Assembly: GCA_942492865.1 (NCBI GenBank)
Contig: OW818650.1
Span: 1,960,564 to 2,024,563 of the forward strand
From: an uncultured Bacteroidales bacterium
GTDB taxonomy: Bacteria; Bacteroidota; Bacteroidia; Bacteroidales; VadinHA17
Direction: 5' to 3'
Length of the DNA: 64,000 nt
A model generated the notes under the pieces. That model made no database searches. It was not told the origin of the DNA and worked only from the letters and a program-made list of their open reading frames with translations. Both the position numbers and the translations under genes were made by a program. The first letter of the stretch is position 1; each line of letters starts with the position of its first letter. Shown here one piece after another: positions 38,663 through 64,000 of this stretch.

Positions 38663-39093
38663 ATAATATTGTTTCGGATGTTCATGCCTGTAATGTAGTT
38701 GAACTGACTAAAATACATAACCGGGCAGGAAATATAACGATCATTCAGAATGGTGATCATCAGCCATTTGGAATTAAGAGGGTATATTACCTTTACGATG
38801 TCCCCGGTGGTTCAGATCGAGGAGGTCATGCGCATAAGGCTCTTTACCAGCTAATTGTTGCTGCCAGCGGTTCCTTTGATGTAATTCTCGATGATGGCAC
38901 CAACAAGAAGATCATTCAATTGAACAGGCCATATTTCGGTCTGTTTGTGGTGCCTGGTATATGGAGGGAGATAGTTAACTTTTCATCCGGTGCAATTTGC
39001 CTCGTGATGGCTTCGGAAAAATATTCTGCAGATGATTATATCCGCGACTATTCTGATTTTCAAAAACTGAAACTTAATACTAATGTTGACTGA
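38659..39093 (+). CDS. FdtA/QdtA-like sugar 3,4-ketoisomerase, copy 2
   Basis: Paralogue of copy 1 (FGIKRVYYLYDVPGGSDRGGHAHKALYQ...DDYIRDYSDF). The start overlaps the copy 1 stop (ATGA). Confidence 0.8.
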   Translation: MNNIVSDVHACNVVELTKIHNRAGNITIIQNGDHQPFGIKRVYYLYDVPGGSDRGGHAHKALYQLIVAASGSFDVILDDGTNKKIIQLNRPYFGLFVVPGIWREIVNFSSGAICLVMASEKYSADDYIRDYSDFQKLKLNTNVD

Positions 39094-40012
39094 CTTCGAT
39101 ATAAGTACTTACAATTCATATTTCCCTGTAAATCCGCATCCATTTATATCCGCTCCATTTATTGAGCTTAATAGAAATAAGGCAGATGTCATTATTAGAC
39201 TGGCAGAGAGTACGCAGAAACCTGTAATAGGGTTGGTGGCAGGTATTAAAGAAGGTGTGTTATATTCTCCTTTTTCGGCGCCTTTCGGAGGCTTCCACTT
39301 TCTGAAGCAGAATATTTATGTAAGCGAAATTGACAATTTTCTGAAGTCACTTCAATCGCATATTGTTTCGAAAGGATATAGCGGAATTGAATTGATAATG
39401 CCACCCGATATTTACCACCCGACATTCAATGCCAAAACTATCAATTGCCTGGTACGTAATGGTTTTGAACCGGCTATACCGGAGGTGACCAACTGGGTTG
39501 AGCTAAATAATTTTAACGGGGTTTTTTCACAAAGGAACAGCCGTGAATACTATAATCAGGCTGTCAGGTTCGGCCTCACTTTTAGTCTGGCCCGGGATGA
39601 GACAGATAAAGAAAACATTTATAGTCTCATCTCCAGCAACAGGGCAAAATTCGGCAGGCCCATTTTTATGACACTTAAAGATATTAACGATACTGCCGGC
39701 TTATGGCCGGTGGATTTCTTTAAGGTAAACTCAACTGACGGTACACTGGTAGCATCGGCCATCTTTTATCAAAGCCATCCTGACATCTGCTATGCTGCCT
39801 TCTGGGGTGATAATGAAACAGGCAGGCCCCTTCGGGCCATGGATTTTCTTGCATTTAATCTGTGGGCATTTTATAAAAACAAAGGTTATAAATACATTGA
39901 CCTTGGTATCTCTACTGAAAACGGGCACCCGAATGAAGGACTTCTGCGTTTCAAGGAATCTCACGAAGGATCATCATCCCTGCGATATAAATTCACCTGG
40001 AAGGTAAAGTAA
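39083..40012 (+). CDS. FemAB-like / Acetyltransf_6-type (GNAT-fold) acyl- or aminoacyl-transferase
   Basis: 309 aa. The C-terminal YIDLGIS...NEGLLRFKESHEGS resembles the G(L/V)xRFKxxFG motif of FemABX-type transferases. Assignment is by motif only. Confidence 0.4.
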   Translation: MLTDFDISTYNSYFPVNPHPFISAPFIELNRNKADVIIRLAESTQKPVIGLVAGIKEGVLYSPFSAPFGGFHFLKQNIYVSEIDNFLKSLQSHIVSKGYSGIELIMPPDIYHPTFNAKTINCLVRNGFEPAIPEVTNWVELNNFNGVFSQRNSREYYNQAVRFGLTFSLARDETDKENIYSLISSNRAKFGRPIFMTLKDINDTAGLWPVDFFKVNSTDGTLVASAIFYQSHPDICYAAFWGDNETGRPLRAMDFLAFNLWAFYKNKGYKYIDLGISTENGHPNEGLLRFKESHEGSSSLRYKFTWKVK

Positions 40013-40015
40013 ACT

Positions 40016-40927
40016 ATGTTCGTATTAAATCCCGACCCATATAGCCTCCCTTGTTACCGTATCGGACCTTTTCGTACATCAGATCTCTCATTAAACCATA
40101 ATCTGCCGGTTAGTTACCTGGCAGATGAATATTTTAATGAAAGGTTTGCAGCAAAAGATCTGATCTATACCTTTAATGGAAGAAAGGCAATAAACATTGC
40201 CCTGGAGTATTATAACCTCGATAAAGATGACATCGTCACTATCTTTACCACAAGCGGGAATTTCTATATTAGCGGCTGTGTGACGAAGGAAATTGAGAGA
40301 TTCTGCAAATGGTCACGTAAGATTGAGCCTGAAACAAAGATAATTTTTGTGAACCATGAATTTGGGTATCCTTTTCCTGACCTGCATACCCTAAGAAAAT
40401 ATGGCCTTCCGATAATTGAAGATTGTGCAGGCTCCTTCTTTTCCCACGACAAGTATGACAACATTGGTAACATAGGTGAATTCGTTATTTACAGCTTTCC
40501 CAAGATGTTCCCACTGCAGGTTGGTGGATTGCTTGTGTCAAATCTTGACAGGGAGATCAGCAGGGAAGGACAGGCTGATGAAATGACTGCCAGACATATA
40601 AGAAATGTTTTGTCGCATTATATAGGTTCAAGGGATGAAATAATAAAAAAAAGGATAGGAAACTTTAATTATCTGAAAGAAAAATTCGGATCACTAGGAT
40701 TAAAGGTCCGGTTTAAGGATGAGGATGGTGTGGTTCCCGGAGTCTTTATGTTTGAAACGGGTAGCCTTGGAATCGATTTTCCTGAATTGAAAAAGTATTA
40801 CTATGCCCATGGTGTCCAATGCAGTGTCTTTTACGGAGAGGAGGCTTTTTTTATTCCGGTTCATCAGGCATTAAATGAGCATGATATGGACTATTTTTTT
40901 GAAGTTTGCAGATCATTCCTCAAATAA
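40016..40927 (+). CDS. Short DegT/DnrJ/EryC1-like PLP-dependent enzyme (divergent)
   Basis: FNGRKAINIALEYY...IIEDCAGSFFS...FVIYSFPKMFPLQVGG parallels the Asp and Schiff-base Lys regions of DegT-type aminotransferases, but the protein is only 303 aa. Confidence 0.4.
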   Translation: MFVLNPDPYSLPCYRIGPFRTSDLSLNHNLPVSYLADEYFNERFAAKDLIYTFNGRKAINIALEYYNLDKDDIVTIFTTSGNFYISGCVTKEIERFCKWSRKIEPETKIIFVNHEFGYPFPDLHTLRKYGLPIIEDCAGSFFSHDKYDNIGNIGEFVIYSFPKMFPLQVGGLLVSNLDREISREGQADEMTARHIRNVLSHYIGSRDEIIKKRIGNFNYLKEKFGSLGLKVRFKDEDGVVPGVFMFETGSLGIDFPELKKYYYAHGVQCSVFYGEEAFFIPVHQALNEHDMDYFFEVCRSFLK

Positions 40928-40936
40928 ATCCTTTAT

Positions 40937-42199
40937 ATGAAATTTGCCAATATCAGTCTGGGCAGGGATGTTGAAATAGATCCTTCCACCTCAATTAATA
41001 ATGTTGTAATAGGCGATAAGGTCAGAATTGCCAAGCGATGCAGCATATATGGCAGCCCGGAGAACCCGCTGGAGTTGGGACCCAATTCTTATGTTGGTAT
41101 GAACAGCGTGCTTAATGGTTTTTCAGCCAAACTTACCATTGGGAAGAATGTCAGTATATCCCAGTTTGTCAATATAATGGTCGATTCGGGTCCAAATGCC
41201 TCTCCCGGTATGATGAGAATTTTTCCGATAGTCAAAGGGCCGGTAACGATCGGAAATGACAGCTGGATAGGATCCGGTGCAACGATAATGCCGAACGTGA
41301 CTTTAGGTGAGTACTGCGTAGTTGCGGCACACAGCTACGTAAATAAAAGTTTTCCTGCATTTTCGGTTATTGGAGGTTGCCCGGCAAAACTGATCAGGAC
41401 ATTCACAGATGAGGAGAAGGCCACAATGCTTGATGTTGAAAATAAAAGTCTCCCATGTAATTCCAGCAGTTATGAAGACAATTATCTTGATCTGCCATTT
41501 GAAGACGCACTCCGGAAATTCCGTTTCAGAAATCTTTTGACCAAGCTCAGGGAATACCCCCATAAACGAATTATTGAAATAGGCCCCGGGTCCAATCCGC
41601 TGTTCAGTTATTTCAGCGGATTCGAAAGAATGACAATAATTGAGCCTGGTAAAAATTTTGCAAAAATTGTGCGTACACAGATTGGTACAAGATCTGATAT
41701 AACGCTTATCAATGATACAATTGAAAACATATCAGGACAACTCGGGAATGACTCTTATGATTTGGTAATAATCGGAGGTTTTCTGCACGAAATAGACAAT
41801 CCGGATGCAGTCTTAAGTGCAGTGCGGGTTCTCTGTTCTGACGATACAGTTGTTTACACTTATGTGCCTAACGCTCAATCATTCCACCGGATACTTGCTT
41901 TCAAAATGGGACTGATAGAAAATGTTTTTCAGAAATCGGGGCACGATGAGTTATTTAAAAGGCAGAGTGTTTTTGATATTGAGTCTTTCAAAGCATTAAT
42001 GAGAAATCAGGGCTTTAAAGTAATTGATTCCGGGTCATATTTTATTAAACCATTCACCCATGACCAGATGAAAGCAATTATTGATAACCACATTATTGAT
42101 AATTCCTGTCTCGAAGGTCTGGATAAAATGGTTGAGTATCTGCCAGGTATGGGTTCAGAATTATGGTTTAGCTGTAAAAAAGATGATAAAATTTCTTGA
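40937..42199 (+). CDS. Fusion: left-handed beta-helix (hexapeptide) acyltransferase + class I SAM-dependent methyltransferase
   Basis: Residues 1-160 are hexapeptide repeats (IGDKVRIAKRCSIYG.., IGNDSWIGSGATIMPNVTLGEYCVVAAHSYV). Residues 200-420 carry the SAM motif IIEIGPGSNP and the acidic motif LVIIGGFLHEI. Confidence 0.75.
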   Translation: MKFANISLGRDVEIDPSTSINNVVIGDKVRIAKRCSIYGSPENPLELGPNSYVGMNSVLNGFSAKLTIGKNVSISQFVNIMVDSGPNASPGMMRIFPIVKGPVTIGNDSWIGSGATIMPNVTLGEYCVVAAHSYVNKSFPAFSVIGGCPAKLIRTFTDEEKATMLDVENKSLPCNSSSYEDNYLDLPFEDALRKFRFRNLLTKLREYPHKRIIEIGPGSNPLFSYFSGFERMTIIEPGKNFAKIVRTQIGTRSDITLINDTIENISGQLGNDSYDLVIIGGFLHEIDNPDAVLSAVRVLCSDDTVVYTYVPNAQSFHRILAFKMGLIENVFQKSGHDELFKRQSVFDIESFKALMRNQGFKVIDSGSYFIKPFTHDQMKAIIDNHIIDNSCLEGLDKMVEYLPGMGSELWFSCKKDDKIS

Positions 42200-43406
42200 T
42201 CTCAAAGCTGTTAATGATTCTTTCGGAGATGAGCTTTCGGAAGCAGTTAACCGTGTCCTTAAGTCAGGATGGTATCTGCTTGGAAATGAAGTAGGCGATT
42301 TCGAAAAAAGCTATGGGTCTTATATAGGATCAAAGCATTGCATTGGTGTGGCAAATGGTCTGGATGCACTCAGGCTCATTTTCAGAGCCTATATGGAATT
42401 GGAAATGATGAAGGAAGGAGATGAAATCATTGTTCCGGCGAATACTTATATAGCATCCATTCTTGCAATAACTGAAAACCGGTTAAAACCCGTCCTGGTT
42501 GAGCCGCAAATAAATAACTATAATATAGACGTTTCATTAATTGAAAAGAGCATTACTGCCCGCACACGTGCAATTATGGTCGTTCATCTTTACGGCAGGA
42601 CCTGCTGGTCTGAAAACCTGGAGGATATTGCTGCCAGATACAATCTGAAGATAATAGAGGATAATGCACAAGCGGCAGGAGCGATGACGATGGCTCAGAG
42701 CTCAGAGCGCAGAGCGCAGGAGAAGAAGGCACAGGGCACAGGGCACAGAGCTCAGGAGGAAATGGCTCAGAGCTCAGAGCTCAGGGCTCAGGGCAAGAAA
42801 GAGATGACCCTGAAACGAACTGGTTCATTGGGAGATGCAGCCGGTCACAGTTTTTATCCGGGGAAAAATTTAGGTGCCATAGGAGATGGAGGCGGAGTCA
42901 CTACTGATGATGATGAACTTGCTGCGGTTGTAAGATCGCTGGCGAACTATGGTTCTTCAAAGAAGTATGTATTCGAATATCAGGGATTGAATTCAAGGCT
43001 TGACGAGATACAGGCAGCAGCATTAAATGTAAAGTTGCGCAGGCTTGACCATGATAACCAGCGCCGCCGTGAAATCGCTAAATGTTATATTGAAAATATA
43101 AGGAATCAGGGAATAATTTTACCTGAAAATCCAACCTTTGACCTTTCTCATGTATGGCATCTTTTTGTTGTCCGCTCACTGTTCAGAGAACGTTTGCAGA
43201 ATTATCTTATTGAGAACGGGATACAAACGCTGATCCACTACCCTGTACCGCCTCATCAACAACAGGCATATAAGGAGTGGAATGATTTAATATTCCCATT
43301 AACTGAAAAAATTCACCGGGAAGTATTGAGTATGCCGATAAGCCAGGTAATGAATGATAATGAAATGGAGCAGGTTATTAATATTATCAATAAATTCTCC
43401 GTTTAG
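42183..43406 (+). CDS. DegT/DnrJ/EryC1/StrS aminotransferase (FdtB/QdtB-like) carrying a ~39-codon repeat-derived insertion
   Basis: MIKFLDLKAVNDSF.., IIEDNAQAAGA, GSLGDAAGHSFYPGKNLGAIGDGG and ANYGSSKKY..GLNSRLDEIQAA. The listed start 42081 lies inside the previous gene, so ATG 42183 is used. Confidence 0.85.
   Translation: MIKFLDLKAVNDSFGDELSEAVNRVLKSGWYLLGNEVGDFEKSYGSYIGSKHCIGVANGLDALRLIFRAYMELEMMKEGDEIIVPANTYIASILAITENRLKPVLVEPQINNYNIDVSLIEKSITARTRAIMVVHLYGRTCWSENLEDIAARYNLKIIEDNAQAAGAMTMAQSSERRAQEKKAQGTGHRAQEEMAQSSELRAQGKKEMTLKRTGSLGDAAGHSFYPGKNLGAIGDGGGVTTDDDELAAVVRSLANYGSSKKYVFEYQGLNSRLDEIQAAALNVKLRRLDHDNQRRREIAKCYIENIRNQGIILPENPTFDLSHVWHLFVVRSLFRERLQNYLIENGIQTLIHYPVPPHQQQAYKEWNDLIFPLTEKIHREVLSMPISQVMNDNEMEQVINIINKFSV
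42690..42806 (+). repeat. Heptamer-tract element embedded in-frame in the aminotransferase CDS
   Basis: ATGGCTCAGA GCTCAGA GCGCAGA GCGCAGG ... GGCACAG GGCACAG GGCACAG AGCTCAG ... ATGGCTCAGA GCTCAGA GCTCAGG GCTCAGG. It translates as MAQSSERRAQEKKAQGTGHRAQEEMAQSSELRAQGKKE. Confidence 0.85.
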
Positions 43407-43424: not shown

Positions 43425-44906
43425 TTGACACAGCAAACATCCTCTTACAGGCAGATCTTCAAAGCGACCTCAATCTTCGGAGGGGTGCAGGTTTTTACTA
43501 TACTGATAAGTGTTGTCAGGGTCAAATTCGTTGCTGTTCTGCTTGGAACGGCAGGTGTAGGCATAATCGGACTTCTGCATGCCCCTCTTCAGTTTATAAT
43601 AGCTCTTACCGGTCTGGGTATATCCTATAGTGCAGTCCGGGATATATCAGAAGCTAATGCCTCTGGCCAGCAAACAAGGATTGCAACAACAATTACAATT
43701 CTTCGGCGCTGGTCATGGTTTACAGGGTTGCTGGGAACTGTAATCACAGCATCGCTTGCACCCCTGCTAAGCGAATGGACATTCGGAAACCGCGAATATA
43801 CATGGGCATTCGTCTGGTTGTCGCTCACCTTGTTCCTGCAGGCTGTTAACAAAGGGCAAAGCGCTATTCTTCAGGGTACAAGGAGATTGAAAGAGATGGC
43901 TAAAGCCAGTGTAATTGGCTCTGCCTTAGGCTTATCCACCTCAATTCCATTATATTATTGGTTTGGCATAAAAGGAATTGTACCGGCGATGCTGGTCACT
44001 GCTGTTACAGCCCTCTGGCTTTCATGGCATTTCTCCCGTAAGATAGCGATTGAAAAGGTAGAGCTTACTGTAAAAGAGACATATAATTCAGGAATGGGGA
44101 TGGTTAAGCTTGGTATTTATATGACAATTGCAGGATTGGTAGCCTCTTTTTCCGCTTACATTCTTAACGCTTTTATCAGCAACCGTAGCGGTGTTGAGCA
44201 GGTTGGCCTCTATAGTGCCGGATGGGCTGTAATAGGCCAGTATACAAGTATTATATTCACTGCAATGGGGACAGATTATTTTCCCCGTCTGTCAGCCATT
44301 CAAACCGACAATGTAAAAATTAAGGAATTAGTGCGGCAACAGATCGAGATAGCACTTCTTATCCTGACACCTCTTCTGTCTCTATTGATCATAATAATGC
44401 CGCTCATTGTAAGGATATTGTACACTCCGGCATTCATGCCAATAGTAATGTTTGCCAACCTGACAGTGCTTGGAATTCAGTTTAAGGCCATTTCATGGGC
44501 CTTGGGTTATGTTTTCCTTGCTAAGGGTAACGGCCGTCTGTTCCTGACTCTTGAGATTGTTTCCGGTACCATCATCCTTCTTCTTAATATATTGTTCTAT
44601 CACCTGTATGGATTGAACGGACTAGGTATTTCTTTTATTTTATCATATATTGCAGGCATGACCATGTCATACCTGGTACTCAGGCGAAAATACAGTTTTG
44701 ATCTCCCGGGTGAATTTTATATAAAATTGCTGCTTACCTACAGCCTGGTCATGATATCTTTCCTCACAGTATTTTTGCAAGGTCCTTTGATCAGGTATAT
44801 TGCAGGCATCTCTGTGCTGGTTTATTCAGTTATATATTCATTCATGAAAATGAATGAAATGATGGATATCAAGTCAATTATACTCGAAAAGTTTAAAAAG
44901 CATTGA
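43425..44906 (+). CDS. wzx: Oligosaccharide flippase (Wzx/MOP superfamily)
   Basis: 493 aa and about 12-14 TM, with an N-terminus YRQIFKATSIFGGVQVFTILISVVRVKFVAVLLG typical of polysaccharide flippases. TTG start as listed (no nearby ATG). Confidence 0.8.
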   Translation: MTQQTSSYRQIFKATSIFGGVQVFTILISVVRVKFVAVLLGTAGVGIIGLLHAPLQFIIALTGLGISYSAVRDISEANASGQQTRIATTITILRRWSWFTGLLGTVITASLAPLLSEWTFGNREYTWAFVWLSLTLFLQAVNKGQSAILQGTRRLKEMAKASVIGSALGLSTSIPLYYWFGIKGIVPAMLVTAVTALWLSWHFSRKIAIEKVELTVKETYNSGMGMVKLGIYMTIAGLVASFSAYILNAFISNRSGVEQVGLYSAGWAVIGQYTSIIFTAMGTDYFPRLSAIQTDNVKIKELVRQQIEIALLILTPLLSLLIIIMPLIVRILYTPAFMPIVMFANLTVLGIQFKAISWALGYVFLAKGNGRLFLTLEIVSGTIILLLNILFYHLYGLNGLGISFILSYIAGMTMSYLVLRRKYSFDLPGEFYIKLLLTYSLVMISFLTVFLQGPLIRYIAGISVLVYSVIYSFMKMNEMMDIKSIILEKFKKH

Positions 44907-44914
44907 CAGCATCA

Positions 44915-45886
44915 ATGAATCCATTGGTTTCAGTAATAGTCGTAAGTTTCAATTCATCACCCTTTATAATTGAAACACTTGAGAGTATTTTAAAACAAAC
45001 CTGGAATGATCTGGAGTTGATCATTACTGACGATTGTTCGCGTGATAACACAATTGAAATTGCCAGAAGATGGCTGGATGCCAATTCTCACAGATTCAGG
45101 CGAAGTGAGGTAATCACGAGTTCTGTTAACACAGGGGTAACTGCAAATGCCAACAGGGGCCTTTATGCTTCTACGGGGGAATGGATAAAATTCCTTGGGG
45201 CTGATGATACCCTGAAACCGAAGTGCATTGAAGAAAATATGGTTTGGATAGCAGGGCATACCGATGCCAGAGGTTTGTTCTCTTATGTGGAATTATATGC
45301 AGGAACTTTCGAATCAGAGAACCTTATAAGGACAATTCCCGGCGATCCATTCTCAGAACAGAGCATTATGTCACCAGAGAGAGATGCCGGTTCTCAGTAC
45401 AGGATGCTCCTGGTAAGCGACAGGATACATTATTCTCCTTCAGTTTTTCTTCACAGATCAACAATCCTGTCACTGGGAGGATTTGATGAAAGATTTAAAA
45501 TGCAGGAAGATTACCCGTTGTGGCTCAAAATGACAAAGAACGGGTATCGGCTTCATTTTATGGAAAAAGTTACGGTAAATTACAGGCAGCATGTCAACGC
45601 CATTAATAATACGGGTATTTCTTACCTGATCAATCCAAATTATTTCAACTCTGAAAAATTCAGAAGAATATACACTTATCCTTTCATGCCTCTCCATTTG
45701 AGGCTGGATCAGCGTTTTCAATATTATACCTCGCTGCCTTTTAAAAATTCTTTACTTAATAAAAACAAAACTCATTACCGCTTCCTCCTGAATATTTTAT
45801 CAGTGTATCTCAATCCATTCAGATATTTTATATGGGTCAGGAAAAAGTTGAATAAAAATCTGATTGACAATGAATTTTATGCATAA
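44915..45886 (+). CDS. Family 2 glycosyltransferase
   Basis: VSVIVVSFNSSPFIIETLESILKQTWNDLELIITDDCSRDNT and a GADD (DxD-like) motif. ATG 44915 is preferred to TTG 44903. Confidence 0.85.
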   Translation: MNPLVSVIVVSFNSSPFIIETLESILKQTWNDLELIITDDCSRDNTIEIARRWLDANSHRFRRSEVITSSVNTGVTANANRGLYASTGEWIKFLGADDTLKPKCIEENMVWIAGHTDARGLFSYVELYAGTFESENLIRTIPGDPFSEQSIMSPERDAGSQYRMLLVSDRIHYSPSVFLHRSTILSLGGFDERFKMQEDYPLWLKMTKNGYRLHFMEKVTVNYRQHVNAINNTGISYLINPNYFNSEKFRRIYTYPFMPLHLRLDQRFQYYTSLPFKNSLLNKNKTHYRFLLNILSVYLNPFRYFIWVRKKLNKNLIDNEFYA

Positions 45887-46989: not shown

Positions 46990-47511
46990 ATGGGACTGAA
47001 AAGATACGGTTATAAAAACTGGAAGAAAAATGAACCGGGGAACATTATTGAATATATATTGTCTCCATGCCCTAACGGACTGCGTATCATCAATTTTATT
47101 TTCCAGAAGATTTTCAGAATTAATGCAGAGGTGCCTTTCATGGTCCATTATACATCAACTGTAAGAAAAACAGTTTATCTCGGAAAAAATGTTGCATTGT
47201 ATTTTGCAAATTCTGGCAACTGCTATTTTTCAGGAATAAATAAAATTTATATTGGTGATAATACCATGTTTGCCTCAGGTGTTAAAGTAATTTCAGCCAA
47301 TCATGACAAGGAGGATTATAGCAAGCATGTTAAAGATGGAGATCCGATAATTATTGGAAAAAATTGTTGGTTAGGAGCGAATTGCGTTATACTCCCTGGT
47401 GTAAAACTTGGTGACAATGTCATTGTAGGTGCTGGCAGCGTTGTAACAAAGTCGTTCCAGAGTAATGTTATTCTTGGTGGAGTACCAGCCAGGATTATAA
47501 AGGGAAATTGA
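46990..47511 (+). CDS. Hexapeptide-repeat O-acetyltransferase (WcaF/maltose-acetyltransferase-like)
   Basis: IGDNTMFASGVKVISANHD...IIIGKNCWLGANCVILPGVKLGDNVIVGAGSVV. Confidence 0.8.
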   Translation: MGLKRYGYKNWKKNEPGNIIEYILSPCPNGLRIINFIFQKIFRINAEVPFMVHYTSTVRKTVYLGKNVALYFANSGNCYFSGINKIYIGDNTMFASGVKVISANHDKEDYSKHVKDGDPIIIGKNCWLGANCVILPGVKLGDNVIVGAGSVVTKSFQSNVILGGVPARIIKGN

Positions 47512-48666: not shown

Positions 48667-48700
48667 ATTGTTCGTACCCGGAAATAGGTTCAAAGAGCAG

Positions 48701-57112: not shown

Positions 57113-58033
57113 ATGAAAGTAATAGTTACAGGTGGCGCAGGATTTATCGGGTCAGCAGTTGTACCTGTTCTGCAGAAGGAAGGTTATGATGTATTTGTAC
57201 TGGATAACCTGTCATCAGGAAACCGGAAGTTCATTGATGTCAGGGATGATCACTTCTTCCTTACTGACATCAGGAATGCTGCAGATGTAAAGTCAGTTTT
57301 TTTATCAGTTAAACCGGAAATAATTGTTCATCTGGCAGCGATACATTTTATACCTTATTGTAACCAGCATCCGTTTGAAGCGGCCGATATCAACATTCGC
57401 GGAACAATCAACATTCTTGATGCAGCCAAAGGTACCAAGACCATTAACAAGTTGTTTTTTGCATCCACCGCGGCAGTATATCCGATATGCAATGATGCGG
57501 TTGATGAAAAACATGAACTTCTCCCTCTGGATATTTACGGATTAAGCAAACTTACAGGAGAAAGATTGTGCAAAGAATTTTTTCTTGAAACTAAAACGGA
57601 CACAATAGTCTGCAGGTTTTTTAATGCATTCGGACCAAATGAAACCAATCCCCACCTGATACCTGAAATTGAAAAGCAGCTGAAAGCTGGAGCCAGGACA
57701 ATTAAATTAGGGAATCTTACCCCAAAGCGAGATTTCATTCATACTCATGACATGGCATCTGCCGTAAAGCAATTGTTAAAGCTTAAGGATACAGGGTATG
57801 ATACCTTCAATCTGGGTCAGGGTGCCGAGTATTCAGTGGTGGAAATTGTTGAAGCCTTTGAACGGCAGTTAAATGAAAAGATAAAAATTGAAGTGGATCC
57901 CGACAGGGTGAGGAAAGTTGAACGTGAGCATCTCCTTGCCAATGTTACAAAGCTCAAGACAGTTGCCGGTTGGAAGCCTGTCTGGGGAATTAATGAAGGA
58001 ATAAAGAACCTGGTTGATAGCTGGAAAAATTAA
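57113..58033 (+). CDS. NAD-dependent epimerase/dehydratase (extended SDR)
   Basis: Rossmann motif VTGGAGFIGS, the catalytic YGLSK (YxxxK), and about 306 aa. Confidence 0.85.
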   Translation: MKVIVTGGAGFIGSAVVPVLQKEGYDVFVLDNLSSGNRKFIDVRDDHFFLTDIRNAADVKSVFLSVKPEIIVHLAAIHFIPYCNQHPFEAADINIRGTINILDAAKGTKTINKLFFASTAAVYPICNDAVDEKHELLPLDIYGLSKLTGERLCKEFFLETKTDTIVCRFFNAFGPNETNPHLIPEIEKQLKAGARTIKLGNLTPKRDFIHTHDMASAVKQLLKLKDTGYDTFNLGQGAEYSVVEIVEAFERQLNEKIKIEVDPDRVRKVEREHLLANVTKLKTVAGWKPVWGINEGIKNLVDSWKN

Positions 58034-58040
58034 ACGACCA

Positions 58041-59186
58041 ATGTACATGACTAAGAAAAGGTTAAAACTTGGAATGATATTTAATTTCAATCCAACCTGG
58101 ATGGGAGGAATTATTTATCTTATTAATCTGGTAAAAACACTCAACCGACTGGATGACAATGACAAACCTGAAATATTTCTTTTTTACAATCCTTCACTCG
58201 AAAAATTTCTGGAAGAGTTCAAATATCCTTACCTGCATGCAATTGAATGGATATCGCCTTCAATTATCAGCGGACATCTGAAATCATGGCTGAAAGGGAA
58301 AAATGTGTTTTATGATGATCTTATAAAAAAATATGAGATTGATACAATTTACCCGGTCAATAAATTCCCTGTAAAGAATAAGACCGGAGCCAAATTTATT
58401 GCATGGTTCGCTGATCTCCAGCATAAGCATTATCCTGAGTTTTTCAGCAGATCGAGACTGATACACAGGGCTATAAGATTACAGCTCATGCTAAGGAATG
58501 CCAGCGATATAATTGTGTCGAGCAACTCTGTAAAGAATGATTTTTCCAGGTTCTTTAAGCTACGGGATGATCTGAGATTTCATATTTATCATTTTACCTC
58601 TGTAAATGATGATTACCCTGACATAAACATTGAGGTACTCAGGAAAAAATATAATTTACCTGTGGACTATTACATGGTATCCAATCAATTTCATAAGCAT
58701 AAGAATCACAGAGTGTTGCTTCAGGCCCTTGCAATTATGAAGAAGAAAGGAATAATAAAGTATATGGCAATGACCGGTAAGCTTCCTTCAGCCGAAAATT
58801 CTCCGTATATGAATGAAATCCACCAGATCATCAATGAAAACAACATGAAGGACCAGATCTGTATGCTGGGGGTAATACCAAGAGGTGATCAGCTTAAAAT
58901 TATGTCGCACTCACAGGCTGTACTTCAGCCCAGTTTGTTCGAAGGATGGAGCACCGTCATCGAAGACGCAATTTCGCTCCAGGTCCCGGTAATAGCATCT
59001 AATCTGGATGTCAATATTGAGCAGCTCGGAGATAAAGGAACATATTTTCATCCTGACAATCCGGAAGAACTTGCTTCAATTCTTTCAGATCTCCCTGAAA
59101 GGAACATGGATGCTGTTATATATGGTGATTATTCGTTAAGAATAAGGGAAGCTGCTGAATCTATTATGAAGGTCTTAGGTAAATAA
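58041..59186 (+). CDS. Family 4-like glycosyltransferase
   Basis: C-terminal LQPSLFEGWSTVIEDAISLQVPVIASN (EX7E). ATG 58041 is preferred to TTG 58014. Confidence 0.7.
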   Translation: MYMTKKRLKLGMIFNFNPTWMGGIIYLINLVKTLNRLDDNDKPEIFLFYNPSLEKFLEEFKYPYLHAIEWISPSIISGHLKSWLKGKNVFYDDLIKKYEIDTIYPVNKFPVKNKTGAKFIAWFADLQHKHYPEFFSRSRLIHRAIRLQLMLRNASDIIVSSNSVKNDFSRFFKLRDDLRFHIYHFTSVNDDYPDINIEVLRKKYNLPVDYYMVSNQFHKHKNHRVLLQALAIMKKKGIIKYMAMTGKLPSAENSPYMNEIHQIINENNMKDQICMLGVIPRGDQLKIMSHSQAVLQPSLFEGWSTVIEDAISLQVPVIASNLDVNIEQLGDKGTYFHPDNPEELASILSDLPERNMDAVIYGDYSLRIREAAESIMKVLGK

Positions 59187-59227: not shown

Positions 59228-60430
59228 TTGAAAATACTCTTCGCAACAATTGCCTGGCCTGCCAAAGGTGAAAGGAACCTTTACTCGGACCTGATGGATG
59301 AATTTGTCAGGGATGGCCACATTGTATATGTATTGTGCGCGGATGAAAAAATTCAGGTCACAACTTCCGGAATAGAAAATGGAATAAACATCCTCAGAGT
59401 AAATACAACCAGGATCCGCAAAACAGGTAAACTGAAAAAAGCCCTCGCTTTTTTCAACCTTGGATCAAGATTGAAAAAAGAGGTTCGCAGGTCATGGCCG
59501 GATCTGGAAATTGACTTGATAATTAGTAATTCGCCCCCGGTTATCCTGTCGGGTTTGATGAGATTTCTCAAGAGAATGTATAATGCACCACTGTATTATA
59601 TGCTCAAGGACATTTGGCCCGACGGACCGGCAGATCTTAAAATTATAAGGAAGTACGGACTTGTTTATTACTATTTCAGGATCCATGAAATCAGAATGTA
59701 TAAAGCTGCTGATTATATTGGTTGCATGTCACAATATAATGTTAGTTATTTACTTAAACACAATAATTTTTTGTCTGAAAGCAAAGTTGAGATATGTCCC
59801 AATACAATCACTCCCCGTACAATAACATTAAGAAATTCAAGGGATCTTATAAGAAAAAAATTTAATATCCCGGAACAGGCTGTGGTGTTCATTTTCAGCG
59901 GAAATATCGGACGTGCGCATGGATTGGATTTTTATCTTGATGCAATAGAAATGCTCAGAGATTTTGATAAAGCATATTTTTTAATTGGTGGTAACGGTAT
60001 GCAATTCAATAGAGTTACCCGGGAAATTAAAAGGAGGAATTTAAAAAATACAGGCACCTACAGCAGACTTCCGGCAGATGATTTTGATGAGTTGCTATTG
60101 TCGAGCGATGTCGGAGTAATACTCCTTGATTCAAAATATAATGTCCCGCAGTTCCCATCACGTCTCCTTTCTTATCTTGAAGCAGGAAAGCCGGTTTTGT
60201 GCTCAGTGAACAATGCGACCGATATTGGAAAAACAATTGTTGATGCCGGATGCGGAGTCTCAACACTGCATGGAGATTTTGAGGAATTTAAATCAGCGGT
60301 GAAGTTTTTCTGTGACCCTGGTAATTCAGAAACAGTTGAGAAAATGCAATCAGATTCCCTTAAATTGCTAAATCAGAATTTTACATCATCAGTCTCTTAC
60401 AATACTATCATAAGGCATTTTGTTGGATGA
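59228..60430 (+). CDS. Family 4 glycosyltransferase (WbuB-like)
   Basis: KILFATIAWPAKGERNLYSDLMDEFVRDGHIVYVL, a GT-B C-domain and PSRLLSYLEAGKPVL. TTG start as listed. Confidence 0.65.
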   Translation: MKILFATIAWPAKGERNLYSDLMDEFVRDGHIVYVLCADEKIQVTTSGIENGINILRVNTTRIRKTGKLKKALAFFNLGSRLKKEVRRSWPDLEIDLIISNSPPVILSGLMRFLKRMYNAPLYYMLKDIWPDGPADLKIIRKYGLVYYYFRIHEIRMYKAADYIGCMSQYNVSYLLKHNNFLSESKVEICPNTITPRTITLRNSRDLIRKKFNIPEQAVVFIFSGNIGRAHGLDFYLDAIEMLRDFDKAYFLIGGNGMQFNRVTREIKRRNLKNTGTYSRLPADDFDELLLSSDVGVILLDSKYNVPQFPSRLLSYLEAGKPVLCSVNNATDIGKTIVDAGCGVSTLHGDFEEFKSAVKFFCDPGNSETVEKMQSDSLKLLNQNFTSSVSYNTIIRHFVG

Positions 60431-60561: not shown

Positions 60562-61731
60562 ATGAAAATGAAAAAACAGATTCTATTATTGGACGGGGGA
60601 GGGACACAGACGCTTCCTATAGCGAAGTCGCTATATAAAAAGGGACATTCGGTTCATGTTTTTTATGTTCATAAGCTTTCTTATGGATATGCAACACGCT
60701 ACGCTTCCCACAGAGTCCAGTCTCCCTCTATAACTAATGAAGCAGAGTTTGATGAGTTTCTAAGGCACTATGTTATTAAAAATGGTATTGATGTAGTGAT
60801 CCCGATGAGTGATCCCAGTGCAATGTTTCTAAGCAGGAACAGGGATTCATTATTACAGATTTGTAAGTTTATTGCACCTGATTATGAAGTTTTTATGAAA
60901 GGCTACGATAAAAACAAGCTGATGACAGTGTGCAGGGATTACGGTTTCCCGCATCCGAAAACCTTCGATATGTCTGTAACTGATATTGCTTCTATAGAGG
61001 ATACTTTTTTCCCTGCCATACTCAAACCTAATCTGACAACCGGAGGCAGGGGTATGAAGATACTGGCTGGCAGGAAAGAACTCGAGGAAGTTTATGATTC
61101 AAATGTGAAGCAGTTCGGACCTTGTCATCTGCAGGAGTTTATACAGGAGGGAGGAAGACAGTTTAAAGTGGAATTGTTTCTTGATGAAAACCACAGACTA
61201 ATCAATTCTTCTGTGATACACAAGCAAAGATTTTATCCTGTTTCCGGCGGAAGTAGTTGCTTTAACACAACGATAAATGACGATTCACAGGTTGGTACAT
61301 GCTATGAGGTACTGAAAAAAATCGGGTGGACAGGATTTGCCGACTTTGACCTTATTGAGGATCCAAAGGATGGAGTGAAAAAGATTATGGAGATAAACCC
61401 GCGGATCCCGGCTTGTGTCAAATCAGCAGTCGACTCAGGTGTCGATTATGCAAGTCTTATCGTTGATGCCTCCCTTGGCAGGGAACCTGAAAAGTATGAA
61501 TATATTCCGGGAAAGCAATTGCGTCATATTGGATTTGACCTTTTATGGTTTGTTCACAGCAAAAACAGGTTTAGGGCCAGTCCAGGCTGGTTCAACTTCT
61601 TCAATAAGGAACAATCGCTTCAGGACTTCAGTTTTGCCGATCCTATGCCTTTCATATACGGTACCGTCGGTAACATAAAGAAAATGTCAAACGCTGATTT
61701 CAGGAAAGCCAAGAACAGCACTAAAATCTGA
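60562..61731 (+). CDS. ATP-grasp domain protein (carboxylate-amine ligase type)
   Basis: FPAILKPNLTTGGRGMKIL, HLQEFIQEGGRQFKVELF and FADFDLIEDPKDGVKKIMEINPR. ATG 60562 is preferred to TTG 60544. Confidence 0.8.
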   Translation: MKMKKQILLLDGGGTQTLPIAKSLYKKGHSVHVFYVHKLSYGYATRYASHRVQSPSITNEAEFDEFLRHYVIKNGIDVVIPMSDPSAMFLSRNRDSLLQICKFIAPDYEVFMKGYDKNKLMTVCRDYGFPHPKTFDMSVTDIASIEDTFFPAILKPNLTTGGRGMKILAGRKELEEVYDSNVKQFGPCHLQEFIQEGGRQFKVELFLDENHRLINSSVIHKQRFYPVSGGSSCFNTTINDDSQVGTCYEVLKKIGWTGFADFDLIEDPKDGVKKIMEINPRIPACVKSAVDSGVDYASLIVDASLGREPEKYEYIPGKQLRHIGFDLLWFVHSKNRFRASPGWFNFFNKEQSLQDFSFADPMPFIYGTVGNIKKMSNADFRKAKNSTKI

Positions 61732-61769: not shown

Positions 61770-62666
61770 ATGACTAATGCCTTTACAGTTGATGTTGAGG
61801 ACGGCATCAATATTGCGATGTTTGACTATTTCAATATAAGGATGGCTCCAACCGAACGGGTTCAGATCAATACGGGCAAAATACTTGATCTGCTTGATAA
61901 ACATAGAGTGAAGGCGACTTTTTTCATATTGGGTGATGTTGCAAAACACTTTCCCACTTTAATAAAAGAGATTTCTCAAAAGGGACACGAGGTCGGCGTA
62001 CATGGTTATTCTCATAAACGTTATTTTATGCTGACTCCTGATGAGGTGAAAGAGGAGATTTCATATACAAAAGCATTACTCGAAGACCTTACAGGAACAA
62101 AGGTCTTCGGACATAGAGCTCCTGCATTTTCAGTTATACCTTCAACAGCCTGGGCGCTCCCTGTTATAGAAGAAGCGGGTTTTACATACGACAGCAGCAT
62201 CATGCCTGCCAGGACAGGCAGGTATGGATGGACAGGTTTTTCAAATGACATACATAGGCTGAAATTGCCTGGTGAGAAAACACTGATCGAAGTGCCGCTG
62301 TCGGTGGTAAGCGTCTTAGGCAGAATGATACCGGCTTGTGGAGGAGGTTATCTGAGACATTTTCCATATTACTTAACACGTAAGGCTTTTATTTCTGTTC
62401 AGCAAAAGCGGCCCGTGATTGTTTATTCACATCCATACGAACTTGATACTAAAAGGTATCCTGATTTTTTTTATGAAGCAATGTCTTCATCAGATATCAG
62501 GAAAAAATTGTCATTATCGTTATTCAGATTGAACAAGGGTACTGTAGAGAAAAAAATGTCCCGCCTTCTTGCAAGTTTCTCCTTTAAGCCCTTGATTGAA
62601 ATAATCAAAGACCTCGACCCTGCAAAATTGACTCTGAAAAGGATTGATATTATAGCAAAACAGTAA
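61770..62666 (+). CDS. Polysaccharide deacetylase (CE4 NodB fold with DUF3473-type C-terminus)
   Basis: FTVDVEDGINI, ATFFILGDVAKHFPTLIKEISQKGHEVGVHGYSHK, GHRAPAFS and VYSHPYELD. Confidence 0.85.
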   Translation: MTNAFTVDVEDGINIAMFDYFNIRMAPTERVQINTGKILDLLDKHRVKATFFILGDVAKHFPTLIKEISQKGHEVGVHGYSHKRYFMLTPDEVKEEISYTKALLEDLTGTKVFGHRAPAFSVIPSTAWALPVIEEAGFTYDSSIMPARTGRYGWTGFSNDIHRLKLPGEKTLIEVPLSVVSVLGRMIPACGGGYLRHFPYYLTRKAFISVQQKRPVIVYSHPYELDTKRYPDFFYEAMSSSDIRKKLSLSLFRLNKGTVEKKMSRLLASFSFKPLIEIIKDLDPAKLTLKRIDIIAKQ

Positions 62667-62692
62667 GGGCCAATTCTGAATTTTATCAAAAC

Positions 62693-63802
62693 ATGAGCAT
62701 TAAAGAGATCATCAGGACAAATCTTAAGAATATCCCTGGCAGATACATTAAAAACAAGTGTGTCGCTATTGAATGTGATGATTGGGGTAGCATCAGAATG
62801 CCATCAAAAGAAGTTCATACAGAGTTATTGAAATCGGGACTGAGGATTCCAAATGACAGGTTTATCAACGACACAATTGAGACCTCGGAAGATCTCGAGA
62901 TGCTTTTTAACGTACTATATAGTGTCATAGACAGTTCGGGTCATCATCCTGTGGTGACAGCAGTGTCTAATATGGCTAATCCTGATTTTGAAAAGATCAG
63001 GCAATCAGGGTTTTCCGGGTACCATTATGAAAAATTCACTGACACTTATATCAGATATGGAAGAGGGGAAAATATATTCGGGCTCTGGAAGCAAGGTATT
63101 GCAGAAGGTCTATTCATTCCTGAGCTGCATGGAAGGGAACACTTGTCAGTTCAGATCTGGCTCCGGATGTTAAAAGAAGGGAACAGGGACCTTTTAGTCG
63201 CATTTGATAAAGAATTCGTTTCTCCCGAAATACCGGGTATCGATCCGTTGGCGAATGGTTTCAGGGCAGAATTTTATCATAATTCTCAATCAGAGATACC
63301 TTTTCTGAAGCGTTCAATCACTGATTCAGTGGAGTTATTCAGAGATATATTTGGATTTAGTCCAAAAATATTTGTTCCCGGCAATGCTGTATTTCATCCG
63401 GTTTTTGAAGAAGATGTTACTCGTTCGGGTATAAAATTTCTATATGTAAACAGAAATATGTTTTATCGGGATACTGGCGGTAATATGATTAGGAAAAATT
63501 ACCTTTCAGGTCAGAAAAACACTTCCGGACTTATCTTCTATCTGCGTAATTGCGTTTTTGAACCATGCAGTGAGAATTACAGCGGGATTGATTATACGCT
63601 TATGCAGATTGATGCGGCATTCCGGTGGGGTAAACCTGCAATAATCAGTACACATCGTGTAAATTTTGCAGGGGGTATTGATGTTGCCAACAGGGAAAAG
63701 GGCCTGAGGGAACTGAAGGATCTTCTTAATACAATTGTAAAAAGATGGCCTGATGTTGAATTCATGAGCTCATTAAAGGTTTTGGAAAAATATTGTAATT
63801 AA
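62693..63802 (+). CDS. Uncharacterised protein, paralogue of 49963..51099
   Basis: IECDDWGSIRMPS, NPDFEKIR, LHGREH, RNCVFEP and AFRWGKPAIISTHRVNF are colinear with the first copy along the full length. Confidence 0.6.
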   Translation: MSIKEIIRTNLKNIPGRYIKNKCVAIECDDWGSIRMPSKEVHTELLKSGLRIPNDRFINDTIETSEDLEMLFNVLYSVIDSSGHHPVVTAVSNMANPDFEKIRQSGFSGYHYEKFTDTYIRYGRGENIFGLWKQGIAEGLFIPELHGREHLSVQIWLRMLKEGNRDLLVAFDKEFVSPEIPGIDPLANGFRAEFYHNSQSEIPFLKRSITDSVELFRDIFGFSPKIFVPGNAVFHPVFEEDVTRSGIKFLYVNRNMFYRDTGGNMIRKNYLSGQKNTSGLIFYLRNCVFEPCSENYSGIDYTLMQIDAAFRWGKPAIISTHRVNFAGGIDVANREKGLRELKDLLNTIVKRWPDVEFMSSLKVLEKYCN

Positions 63803-63808
63803 ATTTTT

Positions 63809-64000
63809 ATGCAGAACATCAGGCGGTTCATATATCTTCTCTATTATCTTAAAGAATCGGATTACAGCACTCTTTCATCATTTTTGAGGTATGCATCATC
63901 CGGTTCAGGAAAATCGCGAATGAGGATCATGAGTGATGCTGTTGTTTCAGTTTTCAAATACAATGTTTCATTGAAAGATTATTTCAGTTTCAGGTTCTTT
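63809..64000 (+). CDS. 5' fragment of an open reading frame running off the window (possibly a sugar-transfer-associated ATP-grasp)
   Basis: ATG 63809 opens 64 stop-free codons to the window edge (MQNIRRFIYLLYYLKESDYS...VSLKDYFSFRFF). The N-terminal pattern ending in (D/E)YFxFxF(F/Y) resembles that family from memory only. Confidence 0.35.
   Translation, partial: MQNIRRFIYLLYYLKESDYSTLSSFLRYASSGSGKSRMRIMSDAVVSVFKYNVSLKDYFSFRFF

Follow-up and report, generated by a model that had tools for sequence, protein, structure and literature searches.

The window analysed here is a stretch of 64,000 nucleotides of contig OW818650.1 (assembly GCA_942492865.1, positions 1,960,564 to 2,024,563 of the forward strand) from an uncultured Bacteroidales bacterium of the VadinHA17 lineage. 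Its right part, from position 34997 to beyond 64000, is best explained as one co-directional Wzx/Wzy-dependent surface-polysaccharide locus with an architecture that is widespread in Bacteroidota. We give a probability of roughly 0.55 to the reading that the product of this locus is an amino-acid-decorated or otherwise heavily N-modified polysaccharide, which would be made by cytoplasmic de-N-acetylation followed by re-ligation of amides, by amidation and possibly by epimerisation, that is, by a version of the Wbp/Vim pathway, known from Porphyromonas gingivalis and Tannerella forsythia, that is rich in ATP-grasp enzymes. Direct support exists for the gene families, for their conserved order, for the absence of signal peptides from the tailoring enzymes and for the integrity of the nucleophile of the AsnB-type amidotransferase.

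Gene families were assigned with Pfam and NCBIfam scans of the open reading frames (ORFs) of the window. The tailoring enzymes central to our reading are the following:

49960..51099, + strand: DDWGS/HGREH paralog 1, candidate metal-dependent de-N-acetylase with a CE4/GH57-like fold, predicted cytoplasmic (motifs DDWG37 and HGREH155)
51632..52783, + strand: CapA/PGA_cap metallophosphatase-fold protein, candidate MslH-like residue epimerase (PF09587, PGA_cap, E 4e-60)
52930..54864, + strand: AsnB-type glutamine-dependent amidotransferase (Asn_synthase and GATase domains; TIGR01536 415 bits, TIGR03108 305 bits, TIGR03104 290 bits)
54839..55861, + strand: ATP-grasp ligase 1, RimK/LysX-like (Pfam RimK E 9e-5; rimK_fam E 1e-14; LysX E 4e-11)
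60562..61731, + strand: ATP-grasp ligase 2, carbamoyl-phosphate-synthase-like, PRK12767 type (ATP-grasp_3 E 6e-8; CPSase_L_D2 E 7e-8; PylC-like_N; PRK12767 76 bits, E 2e-21)
61770..62666, + strand: DUF3473-type CE4 polysaccharide deacetylase, predicted cytoplasmic (DUF3473 E 4e-25; Polysacc_deac_1 E 3e-22; TIGR03006 240 bits)
62693..63802, + strand: DDWGS/HGREH paralog 2 (motifs at 29/146; AlphaFold2 model)
63809..64000, + strand: ATPgrasp_ST (PF14397) protein, the first 64 codons, cut at the window end (homology and synteny with the related locus L002)

The clustering of these genes is not due to chance: dozens of genomes, drawn from several orders, carry them in an identical arrangement. The window proteins were compared by tblastn with 78 genome loci (numbered L here, as are all related loci) collected with a DDWGS profile and with 80 metagenome loci collected independently with a profile of ATP-grasp ligase 1. 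Both sets share an order that starts with a GT4-like glycosyltransferase, EpsG and DDWGS, continues with an optional second DDWGS and with CapA-AsnB, a DUF362 protein or nothing, and then runs through ATP-grasp ligase 1, a glycosyltransferase, an epimerase, two further glycosyltransferases and an optional ATP-grasp ligase 2-DUF3473 pair to a DDWGS gene and ATPgrasp_ST. It is found in Bacteroidales, Marinilabiliaceae, Prolixibacteraceae, Rikenellaceae, Flavobacterium, Gelidibacter, Cyclobacteriaceae, Chitinophagaceae and Pedobacter, and spans the orders Bacteroidales, Flavobacteriales, Cytophagales and Chitinophagales. The initial annotation of this DNA had described an unusual density of amide-forming and de-N-acetylating enzymes. 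The genes are indeed present, each of those that it named being found at its position on the + strand, and hidden Markov model and fold annotation moved none of the amide-forming or deacetylase candidates to an unrelated fold; the density is, however, unusual only in comparison with textbook loci, since the architecture is common in Bacteroidota.

ATP-grasp ligase 1 is the most conserved gene of the cassette (53–72% identity across orders). A DDWGS gene lies no more than 7 kb away from it in 28 of 33 loci that carry this ligase, and upstream of it in 27, while the ligase itself is present in only 22 of 38 DDWGS loci with full flanks. This asymmetry of co-occurrence fits a pathway in which the deacetylase acts first and the ligase, the epimerase and the amidotransferase are optional later steps. 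Two or more CE4-like genes are present in 33 of the same 38 loci. ATP-grasp ligase 2 is directly followed by the DUF3473 gene in all four related loci whose contigs reach as far as the following gene (L004, L013, L016 and L121; a fifth copy, in L060, stands at a contig end), and L006, which has no ATP-grasp ligase 2, carries a gene for a 328-amino-acid GNAT protein upstream of DUF3473 instead.

Many of the loci without CapA-AsnB have a gene for a DUF362 protein of 442–446 amino acids directly upstream of ATP-grasp ligase 1 (for example L014 4317-5642, L018 1496-2824, L057 9172-10497, L121 6667-8001 and L134 6657-7994). Where a DDWGS gene is also present, the DUF362 gene lies between it and the ligase gene, and it may represent an alternative accessory module.

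The DDWGS/HGREH proteins match no Pfam or NCBIfam model, and a search of PDB profiles returned spurious repeat-protein matches only. The two paralogs of the window are 37% identical over their full length, and neither has a signal peptide. The family is large: at least 6,607 homologs were scored in a word-seeded search, a full profile scan returned 1,951 clusters (50% identity) at E <= 1e-3 and 844 at E <= 1e-30, and more than 549 loci were found in GTDB species representatives, nearly all of them in Bacteroidota and some in Ignavibacteria. A few sources name the homologs 'polysaccharide (de)acetylase'. In a Foldseek search, the AlphaFold model of paralog 2 (pLDDT 89.3, pTM 0.90) matched CE4 deacetylases and GH57 proteins with E values from 7e-7 to 1e-3; the best CE4-type matches were Helicobacter pylori HP0310 (3qbu, E 7e-7), the mycobacterial deacetylase 3rxz, ArnD, PuuE and chitin deacetylases. 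Residues D29, D30, H146, H150, H321 and R322, which are invariant among 19 diverse members, are located at strand ends in the model, and this placement of DD, HxxxH and H(R) resembles CE4 motifs 1, 2 and 5. The proposal that these proteins are de-N-acetylases is thus backed by a CE4-like (beta/alpha)7 barrel and by the motifs and not by profile-profile comparison with CE4, so that they are to be regarded as candidate deacetylases at the level of fold and motif. DDWGS genes often occur in tandem duplicate, as in L032, L033, L051 and L055, and at least one protein, of 746 amino acids (P0295), is a fusion of two DDWGS domains.

It is tempting to go further and to propose that DDWGS/HGREH is an undescribed family of cytoplasmic sugar de-N-acetylases which, with a dedicated RimK-type ATP-grasp ligase and optionally a CapA/MslH-type epimerase and AsnB, swaps N-acetyl groups on lipid-linked glycans for D-amino-acyl, gamma-glutamyl or isoglutaminyl groups, as a tRNA-independent counterpart of Wbp/Vim across Bacteroidota. 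In this specific form we find the proposal doubtful.

Both complete ATP-grasp ligase genes (54839 and 60562) have ATG starts that agree with the N-termini of their homologs, and searches of PDB sequences with the ATP-grasp proteins returned generic carboxylases only and no solved amidoligase. A third ATP-grasp protein had been suspected at the window edge, and this is now supported by synteny and by 43% identity of the edge ORF to residues 5-64 of the syntenic ATPgrasp_ST protein of L002 (itself a PF14397 match with E 5e-49); the PF14397 domain starts near residue 82 in homologs, that is, beyond the 64 residues encoded within the window. In the AsnB-type protein the glutaminase nucleophile Cys2 is intact (N-terminus MCGITGY), and therefore some carboxylate is probably amidated in the pathway.

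The best PDB match of the CapA-like protein is the epimerase MslH (8gq9, E 4e-15), with which its NNHxMD and HxxH motifs align, and the protein has no N-terminal membrane segment or anchor; its NF038314 score is 65 bits against a cut-off of 700. In lasso-peptide clusters MslH works beside an AsnB-like enzyme. We propose, by analogy, that the CapA-like protein epimerises an attached residue, because MslH is its only solved relative and because PgsA, of the same PGA_cap family, also governs residue configuration. The substrate residue of MslH has a free C-terminal carboxylate (PMC10406935), and PgsA controls the D/L ratio of poly-gamma-glutamate, which is 75/25 in the presence of pgsA and 5/95 in its absence (PMC6029982). 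In contrast to these two systems, our locus has neither a peptide substrate nor PgsB/C, and its protein lacks the membrane anchor of PgsA. Synthesis of poly-gamma-glutamate by a CapBCA/PgsBCA system was rejected, since no match to PgsB (Mur-ligase-like) or PgsC was found in the window scans and the CapA-like protein is soluble.

A further amide-forming candidate is encoded in a separate module for an amino sugar:

38264..38662, + strand: FdtA/WxcM-C-like 3,4-ketoisomerase, copy 1 (PF05523 E 2e-49)
38659..39093, + strand: FdtA/WxcM-C-like 3,4-ketoisomerase, copy 2 (PF05523 E 6e-51)
39083..40012, + strand: FemX-like tandem-GNAT protein of 309 amino acids, candidate aminoacyl-tRNA-dependent aminoacyl transferase (fold match; no Pfam model for the family)
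40016..40927, + strand: short DegT-like protein dependent on pyridoxal phosphate (PLP), PLP_IMCC1989 type (DegT E 3e-10 over a partial region; TIGR04422 27 bits; SFPK lysine motif)
40937..42199, + strand: fusion of a hexapeptide-repeat acyltransferase with a class I S-adenosylmethionine-dependent methyltransferase (Hexapep E 7e-18; Methyltransf_23 E 4e-9)
42183..43406, + strand: DegT/FdtB-type sugar aminotransferase with an in-frame heptanucleotide-repeat insertion at 42692-42799 (DegT E 3e-94; Tandem Repeats Finder, TRF)

On the basis of its gene families this FdtA/DegT module is assigned to a 3-amino-6-deoxyhexose. It is kept in relatives in the order FdtA-FdtA-39083-like-short DegT-DegT-Wzx-GT2-GT2, together with the upstream genes for a CHU_C cargo protein, PorP/SprF and an OmpA-PKD protein, and the L159 homolog of the short DegT-like protein carries PF27889. 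The sequence evidence that the product of 39083 is FemAB-like is negligible: the TIGR03019 match is weak (17 bits, E 2e-3), there is no Pfam match (PF02388 or PF13480) and no PDB sequence match, and none of its 525 homologs is annotated. The AlphaFold2 model (pLDDT 84.5), however, is a tandem GNAT, for which Foldseek gives Sbb17/Sba18 as the best matches (E 1e-15, TM 0.66-0.71, identity 16-19%), followed by FemX (E 1e-12), FemA and the MprF aminoacyl-lipid synthases. The Sbb17/Sba18 structures are those of aminoacyl-tRNA-dependent enzymes crystallised with the amino-sugar substrate streptothrisamine, and the related Orf11 performs Gly-tRNA-dependent glycylation of an amino sugar (PMC12945691). 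Together with FemX, these proteins of streptothricin-type antibiotic pathways represent the closest folds to 39083, all being tandem GNATs that transfer an amino acid from aminoacyl-tRNA to the amine of an amino sugar or a peptide; they belong to actinomycete secondary metabolism, whereas 39083 lies in a polysaccharide locus, where the use of tRNA is putative.

The module resembles the FdtA/FdtB/FdtC (QdtA/B/C) pathway for dTDP-3-acetamido-3,6-dideoxyhexose in that two FdtA-domain proteins, a DegT aminotransferase and a hexapeptide acyltransferase are found together. It differs from that pathway by the lack of RmlA/B in the window, by the fusion of the acyltransferase to a methyltransferase and by the insertion of the FemX-like gene and the short PLP enzyme, which suggests that the acyl group is not acetyl. 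O-antigen sugars are known to carry amide-linked Gly, Ala, Ser and allo-Thr, and amino-acylated 6-deoxy-amino sugars are likewise known in O antigens (PMC7685785). Most plausibly, judging from the model and the gene context, the FdtA/DegT product receives an aminoacyl group on its 3-amino position from the FemX-like protein. The two consecutive overlapping FdtA-domain genes (38264-39093) and the fusion gene (40937-42199) suggest a non-standard derivative of 3-amino-3,6-dideoxyhexose.

The insert in the DegT aminotransferase gene (42692-42799) is an in-frame block of heptamers (36 nucleotides x3) that lengthens the protein by about 36 residues (AQSSERRAQEKK...) immediately ahead of the PLP-lysine motif. 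The aligned aminotransferases of relatives have other insertions in the same variable loop, L055 has a short loop only, and in L160 a heptamer-type insertion, 'SSELRAQG', occupies a second site. A period-7 array within this reading frame would in principle allow phase variation.

Taken together, these enzymes suggest the following scheme. A repeat unit rich in N-acetylhexosamines and including one dTDP-derived 3-amino-3,6-dideoxyhexose would be built on undecaprenyl phosphate and re-tailored in the cytoplasm through repeated cycles in which an acetyl group is removed and a new amide is formed. The three CE4-type metal hydrolases (the two DDWGS paralogs and the DUF3473 enzyme) would free sugar amines, to which the three ATP-grasp ligases (RimK-like, carbamoyl-phosphate-synthase-like and ATPgrasp_ST) would couple a carboxylate via an acyl-phosphate. 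The FemX-like protein would aminoacylate the 3-amino group of the FdtA/DegT-made sugar from aminoacyl-tRNA, and the LbH-methyltransferase fusion may then cap the aminoacylated sugar. Where present, the CapA/MslH-like protein would epimerise the attached residue, and AsnB would convert the leftover free carboxylate to a carboxamide.

Several observations weigh against this scheme. The tightest neighbour of DDWGS is not a ligase: in 22 of 25 related loci a DDWGS gene comes directly after the EpsG polymerase gene. Of the 38 full-flank DDWGS loci, 28 encode one or more of the three ATP-grasp types, which leaves 10 without any, and the numbers of CE4-like and ATP-grasp genes per locus are not correlated (r = -0.08); the pairing of deacetylase and ligase is therefore frequent and not obligate, and a strict 1:1 stoichiometry of the two was rejected on these counts. 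The Foldseek matches of the DDWGS model have TM-scores of only 0.4-0.5, with GH57 glycosidases interleaved among the CE4 proteins and scoring about equally, and hhalign detected no profile similarity between DDWGS and the DUF3473 CE4 family (probability 0.2). Acetyl-CoA-dependent tandem GNATs are also found among FemX-like folds, lower in the list of matches to 39083. Finally, ATP-grasp chemistry is silent on which of the two partners bears the carboxylate.

The DDWGS observations bear on the view that these proteins are not deacetylases at all, being GH57-like glycoside hydrolases or transglycosylases, or non-catalytic partners of EpsG, and that CapA, AsnB and ATP-grasp make a separate amino-acid polymer or small molecule. 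Besides the near equality of GH57 and CE4 in Foldseek, the negative CE4 profile comparison and the adjacency to EpsG, faint PF03065 matches on some homologs speak for it, and the combination of CapA with a RimK-like ligase is reminiscent of polyglutamate chemistry. We nevertheless hold this view to be very improbable. The invariant DD...HxxxH...H residues resemble the CE4 pattern of metal ligands and acid/base residues and not the Glu/Asp pair of GH57, a glycosidase without a signal peptide could not trim a periplasmic polymer, and a separate amino-acid polymer is disfavoured by the lack of PgsB/PgsC homologs in the window scans and of the PgsA-type anchor in CapA.

The question of the carboxylate partner leads to a model in which the substrates of the ATP-grasp ligases and of AsnB are the C-6 carboxylates of uronic acids, to which an amine or amino acid is attached or which are converted to primary amides, while the CE4-type enzymes separately leave free amines on GlcN or GalN for charge. 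RimK/LysX-type enzymes normally activate a carboxylate on a large substrate and add a free amino acid to it, which agrees with this model, and the free C-terminal carboxylate that MslH prefers would arise on a uronoyl-amino acid. There are also precedents in the ATP-grasp amidoligase of Campylobacter jejuni HS:2, which makes serinol and ethanolamine glucuronamides (PMC11800379), and in the WbpS/WbqG-type AsnB homologs that amidate uronic acids (PMC7468200). However, neither a UDP-sugar 6-dehydrogenase nor another uronate-forming enzyme was found among the window ORFs, the epimerase at 57113 is GalE-like and not TviC-like (169 versus 56 bits), and the position of DDWGS upstream of ATP-grasp ligase 1 and that of DUF3473 after ATP-grasp ligase 2 would be left unexplained. 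We therefore hold the uronamide model, the main alternative, to be less likely, and retain the amino-acid-decorated polysaccharide as our reading.

The genes that place this chemistry in a surface-polysaccharide locus are the following:

34997..35815, + strand: Wza-type outer-membrane polysaccharide export protein, the true left end of the locus (Poly_export E 2e-15, SLBB)
35851..38187, + strand: Wzc-type chain-length regulator and tyrosine kinase (Wzz, GNVR, AAA_31)
43425..44906, + strand: Wzx flippase (Polysacc_synt_3 E 8e-22)
48668..49963, + strand: EpsG-family (Wzy-like) membrane polymerase (PF14897 E 1e-14)

Wza, Wzc, Wzx and a Wzy-type polymerase, the hallmarks of a Wzx/Wzy-dependent capsule or exopolysaccharide (EPS) locus, are thus all encoded in the window, and in the ORF listing of the whole window 27 + strand genes form an unbroken run with short gaps from 34997 to 64000. 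The left boundary placed at 39083 in the initial annotation cuts the locus, which starts about 4 kb further to the left. In agreement with that annotation, an initiating phosphoglycosyltransferase, RmlA/B and exosortase matched no scanned ORF of the window.

Synteny bears out the suggested rightward continuation of the locus. In L002 (Plebeiibacterium marinum) the second DDWGS gene is followed by genes for a 335-amino-acid PF14397 ATPgrasp_ST protein, a 201-amino-acid GNAT-like ORF, FemAB/Acetyltransf_6, DUF7033, a Bac_transf phosphoglycosyltransferase, an unknown ORF, MBOAT and DegT, and in L006 by ATPgrasp_ST, a 201-amino-acid ORF without a Pfam match and Bac_transf, the locus ending at a TonB-type receptor; the Bac_transf gene lies 2-5 kb past the syntenic DDWGS gene in both. 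Further acyl-transfer genes (AMP-binding, MBOAT and FemAB/Acetyltransf_6) are carried by related loci. Genes for an AMP-binding (adenylate-forming) enzyme and/or MBOAT acyltransferases lie downstream of ATPgrasp_ST in L010 (13888-15372), L002 (16758-18203), L023, L024 and L043, and they hint that loci of this type also direct a Dlt-like decoration with acyl or aminoacyl esters.

The remaining genes of the locus that encode sugar-handling enzymes, together with one inserted gene, are listed below:

44903..45886, + strand: GT2 glycosyltransferase (PF00535 E 7e-26)
45945..46952, + strand: GT2 glycosyltransferase (PF00535 E 7e-31)
46990..47511, + strand: hexapeptide-repeat acetyltransferase, WbbJ/Maa-like (Hexapep E 2e-15; PRK10092 90 bits)
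47545..48666, + strand: divergent GT-B (GT4-like) glycosyltransferase, first gene of the conserved core of glycosyltransferase, EpsG and DDWGS (Glyco_transf_4 E 6e-6, below cut-off; synteny)
51176..51553, + strand: four-helix-bundle protein of the 23S-rRNA-IVS (intervening sequence) type, flanked by heptamer arrays (PF05635 E 4e-32)
55998..57083, + strand: GT4-family glycosyltransferase, PglH/PglJ-like N-acetylhexosamine transferase (Glycos_transf_1 E 7e-35; PglH 127 bits)
57113..58033, + strand: GalE-like NAD-dependent sugar epimerase (Epimerase E 2e-51; galE 169 bits)
58014..59186, + strand: GT-B glycosyltransferase (Glycos_transf_1 E 1e-14)
59228..60430, + strand: GT-B glycosyltransferase, WcaI-like (Glycos_transf_1 E 2e-12; PRK10307 81 bits)

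Seven glycosyltransferases had been counted initially; this number resolves into six ORFs with glycosyltransferase-domain matches (44903, 45945, 47545, the last match being weak, 55998, 58014 and 59228) and one EpsG/Wzy-like protein.

Heptanucleotide tandem arrays were detected by TRF at 42692-42799, 51085-51152, 51585-51611, 52781-52929, 55853-55977 and 60451-60525, and an array with a period of 8 at 34936-34980. The heptamer units are AAAGCGT and GCTCAGA/GGCTCAG with its reverse complement CTGAGCC. The heptamer arrays are confined to the polysaccharide locus, where they mostly fill intergenic gaps dividing sub-blocks, and none is present in bases 1-34000. The IVS-type gene is missing from the corresponding position in most relatives and is probably an inserted passenger. 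Similar IVS-type (bAvd-like) genes with heptamer arrays on one or both sides were found in three unrelated related loci (L006 17340-17711, L030 1901-2245 and L025 8802-9170), the repeat unit of the arrays beside the gene differing from genome to genome, and the gene with its arrays has the appearance of a small cassette that has been inserted into polysaccharide loci.

These spacers bring up the view that the locus is a mosaic of two or more adjacent but separate glycan modules, namely the block from Wza to EpsG and a second block with its own phosphoglycosyltransferase, and that the density of tailoring genes reflects mere juxtaposition. It would account for the division of sub-blocks by heptamer repeats, for the variable presence of CapA, AsnB, ATP-grasp ligase 2 and DUF3473 between genomes and for the second Polysacc_synt (Wzx-like) gene that L006 has just upstream of its block of DUF3473, DDWGS, ATPgrasp_ST and phosphoglycosyltransferase. 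We nevertheless judge a mosaic unlikely in view of the single Wzx and the single Wzy-like gene of the window, the common direction and short gaps of all 27 genes and the fact that in many genomes the two halves remain linked with their order unchanged (L010, L016, L055, L080 and L121, for example). We accordingly continue to treat the region as a single locus.

The first 34 kb of the window hold housekeeping and type IX secretion genes (SecDF, MutS, GH95, a CHU_C cargo protein, PorP/SprF and an OmpA-PKD protein), and family scans of this part revealed no phosphoglycosyltransferase, RmlA/B, exosortase or sugar dehydrogenase. Together with the taxonomy of the nearest related loci, these marker genes put the window in Bacteroidota, close to Marinilabiliales/Bacteroidales; the genome is not one of the GTDB representatives (best match 59%). 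Neither an Rfam family at gathering score nor a tRNA was found in the window. An ORF-free gap at 20650-21667 contains arrays at 20712-21077 and 21250-21612, that is, two segments of about 300 nucleotides which are 97% alike and 534-535 nucleotides apart, each with about 6 copies of a 61-nucleotide repeat and with a super-period of 184 nucleotides; they have no Rfam or tRNA match. The region 25812-34605 consists of a gene for a 1,900-amino-acid type IX cargo protein of CHU_C type (type B C-terminal domain) with 11 copies of a 234-nucleotide Ig_7 repeat, after which come PorP/SprF and a PD40-PKD-OmpA protein. These three genes also lie directly 5' of Wza/Wzc in L159 and L160, and the position of the polysaccharide locus beside these genes is therefore conserved. 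Because the locus adjoins the CHU_C cargo, PorP/SprF and OmpA-PKD genes in the window, in L159 and in L160, one may also imagine that aminoacyl sugars offer a free amine for the attachment of cargo by the type IX sortase outside Porphyromonas; this extension of the DDWGS de-N-acetylase proposal is weaker than the proposal itself.

Bacterial surface glycans commonly bear amide-linked amino acids and carboxamides, which affect charge, antigenicity and recognition by phages and by the immune system, while the enzymes that install them have been identified for a minority of structures. The locus should be seen as a testable lead for glycan-tailoring enzymology and not as a surprising principle. 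It provides a candidate set that comprises a CE4-like family of about 2,000 clusters, a highly conserved RimK-like ligase, two more ATP-grasp types, a FemX-fold enzyme and a CapA/MslH-like protein, and the cassette is carried by cultured organisms such as Plebeiibacterium marinum, Flavobacterium paronense, Flavobacterium coralii, Nubsella zeaxanthinifaciens and Gelidibacter pelagius, so that it can be tested in culture. If our reading is true, a physiological role would be suggested for the soluble CapA-family proteins of polysaccharide loci. In the literature searched for ATPgrasp_ST/PF14397 and for this enzyme combination in Bacteroidota we found no description of the cassette. What is new here is the cassette itself, the unannotated DDWGS family and its association with EpsG and a RimK-like ligase, the presence of three ATP-grasp types and the occurrence of a FemX fold in a 3-amino-6-deoxyhexose module.

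Among the known systems, the capsule locus of C. jejuni HS:2 also encodes an ATP-grasp amidoligase, Cj1438, that forms an amide on a sugar residue (PMC11800379). That enzyme is, however, a domain of a polymerising glycosyltransferase acting on glucuronate, whereas the ATP-grasp proteins of our locus are stand-alone and have deacetylase-type neighbours, and no uronate-forming gene is present in the window. De-N-acetylation of a sugar followed by re-acylation of the amine is well known from mycothiol (MshB then MshC), bacillithiol (BshB then BshC) and lipid A (LpxC then LpxD) synthesis, in the first two cases with an amino acid and at the cost of ATP. These routes differ from the present one in using LmbE/PIG-L or LpxC deacetylases and a Cys-tRNA-synthetase-like ligase, and in acting on small molecules or lipid A instead of a polysaccharide repeat unit.

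The PEP-CTERM/exosortase (XrtA) EPS loci combine the same three enzyme classes within a glycosyltransferase-rich setting, and the earlier remark that a FemAB-like protein, a deacetylase and AsnB form a triad linked to exosortase loci is correct (TIGR03019/03006/03108; PMC7468200). An exosortase-type EPS locus was nevertheless rejected in our case, as no exosortase (EpsH/XrtA) is encoded in the window and all three proteins score below the equivalog cut-offs (17 versus 260 bits for TIGR03019, 239.6 versus 276.2 for TIGR03006 and 304.5 versus 816.9 for TIGR03108). The host belongs to Bacteroidota, the machinery is of the Wzx/Wzy type, and the FemAB-like gene sits in the separate FdtA/DegT module, adjoining neither AsnB nor the deacetylase.

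The closest parallel is the Wbp/Vim linking-sugar pathway of P. gingivalis and T. forsythia, which belong to the same phylum. There, VimE (CE4) is proposed to strip the 2-N-acetyl group, VimA (TIGR03019-like) decides between Ser and Gly, and WbpS (AsnB) makes the uronamide (PMC7468200). The same logic of deacetylase, FemAB-like protein and AsnB appears in our locus at the level of enzyme classes, represented by the DUF3473/TIGR03006-like deacetylase, the FemX-fold protein and AsnB. In contrast to Wbp/Vim, no WbpA/B/D/E, UDP-sugar dehydrogenase or WbpB-type oxidoreductase was found among the window ORFs (such genes could lie elsewhere in the genome), and the FemX-like gene is placed inside the 6-deoxy-amino-sugar module and not beside the deacetylase. 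Our locus has, in addition, three ATP-grasp ligases, the CapA-like protein, two CE4-like DDWGS copies and Wza/Wzc/Wzx/EpsG. Since it has no exosortase and no Wbp genes, and since all three triad proteins are under the cut-offs, the locus shares the logic of the Wbp/Vim pathway and the PEP-CTERM triad yet belongs to neither. By analogy, the order of the proposed steps matches that of VimE, VimA and WbpS, with ATP-grasp enzymes probably performing most of the ligations here, and, if this is true, the deacetylate-aminoacylate-amidate logic of the Porphyromonas A-LPS linking sugar would extend to much of the phylum.

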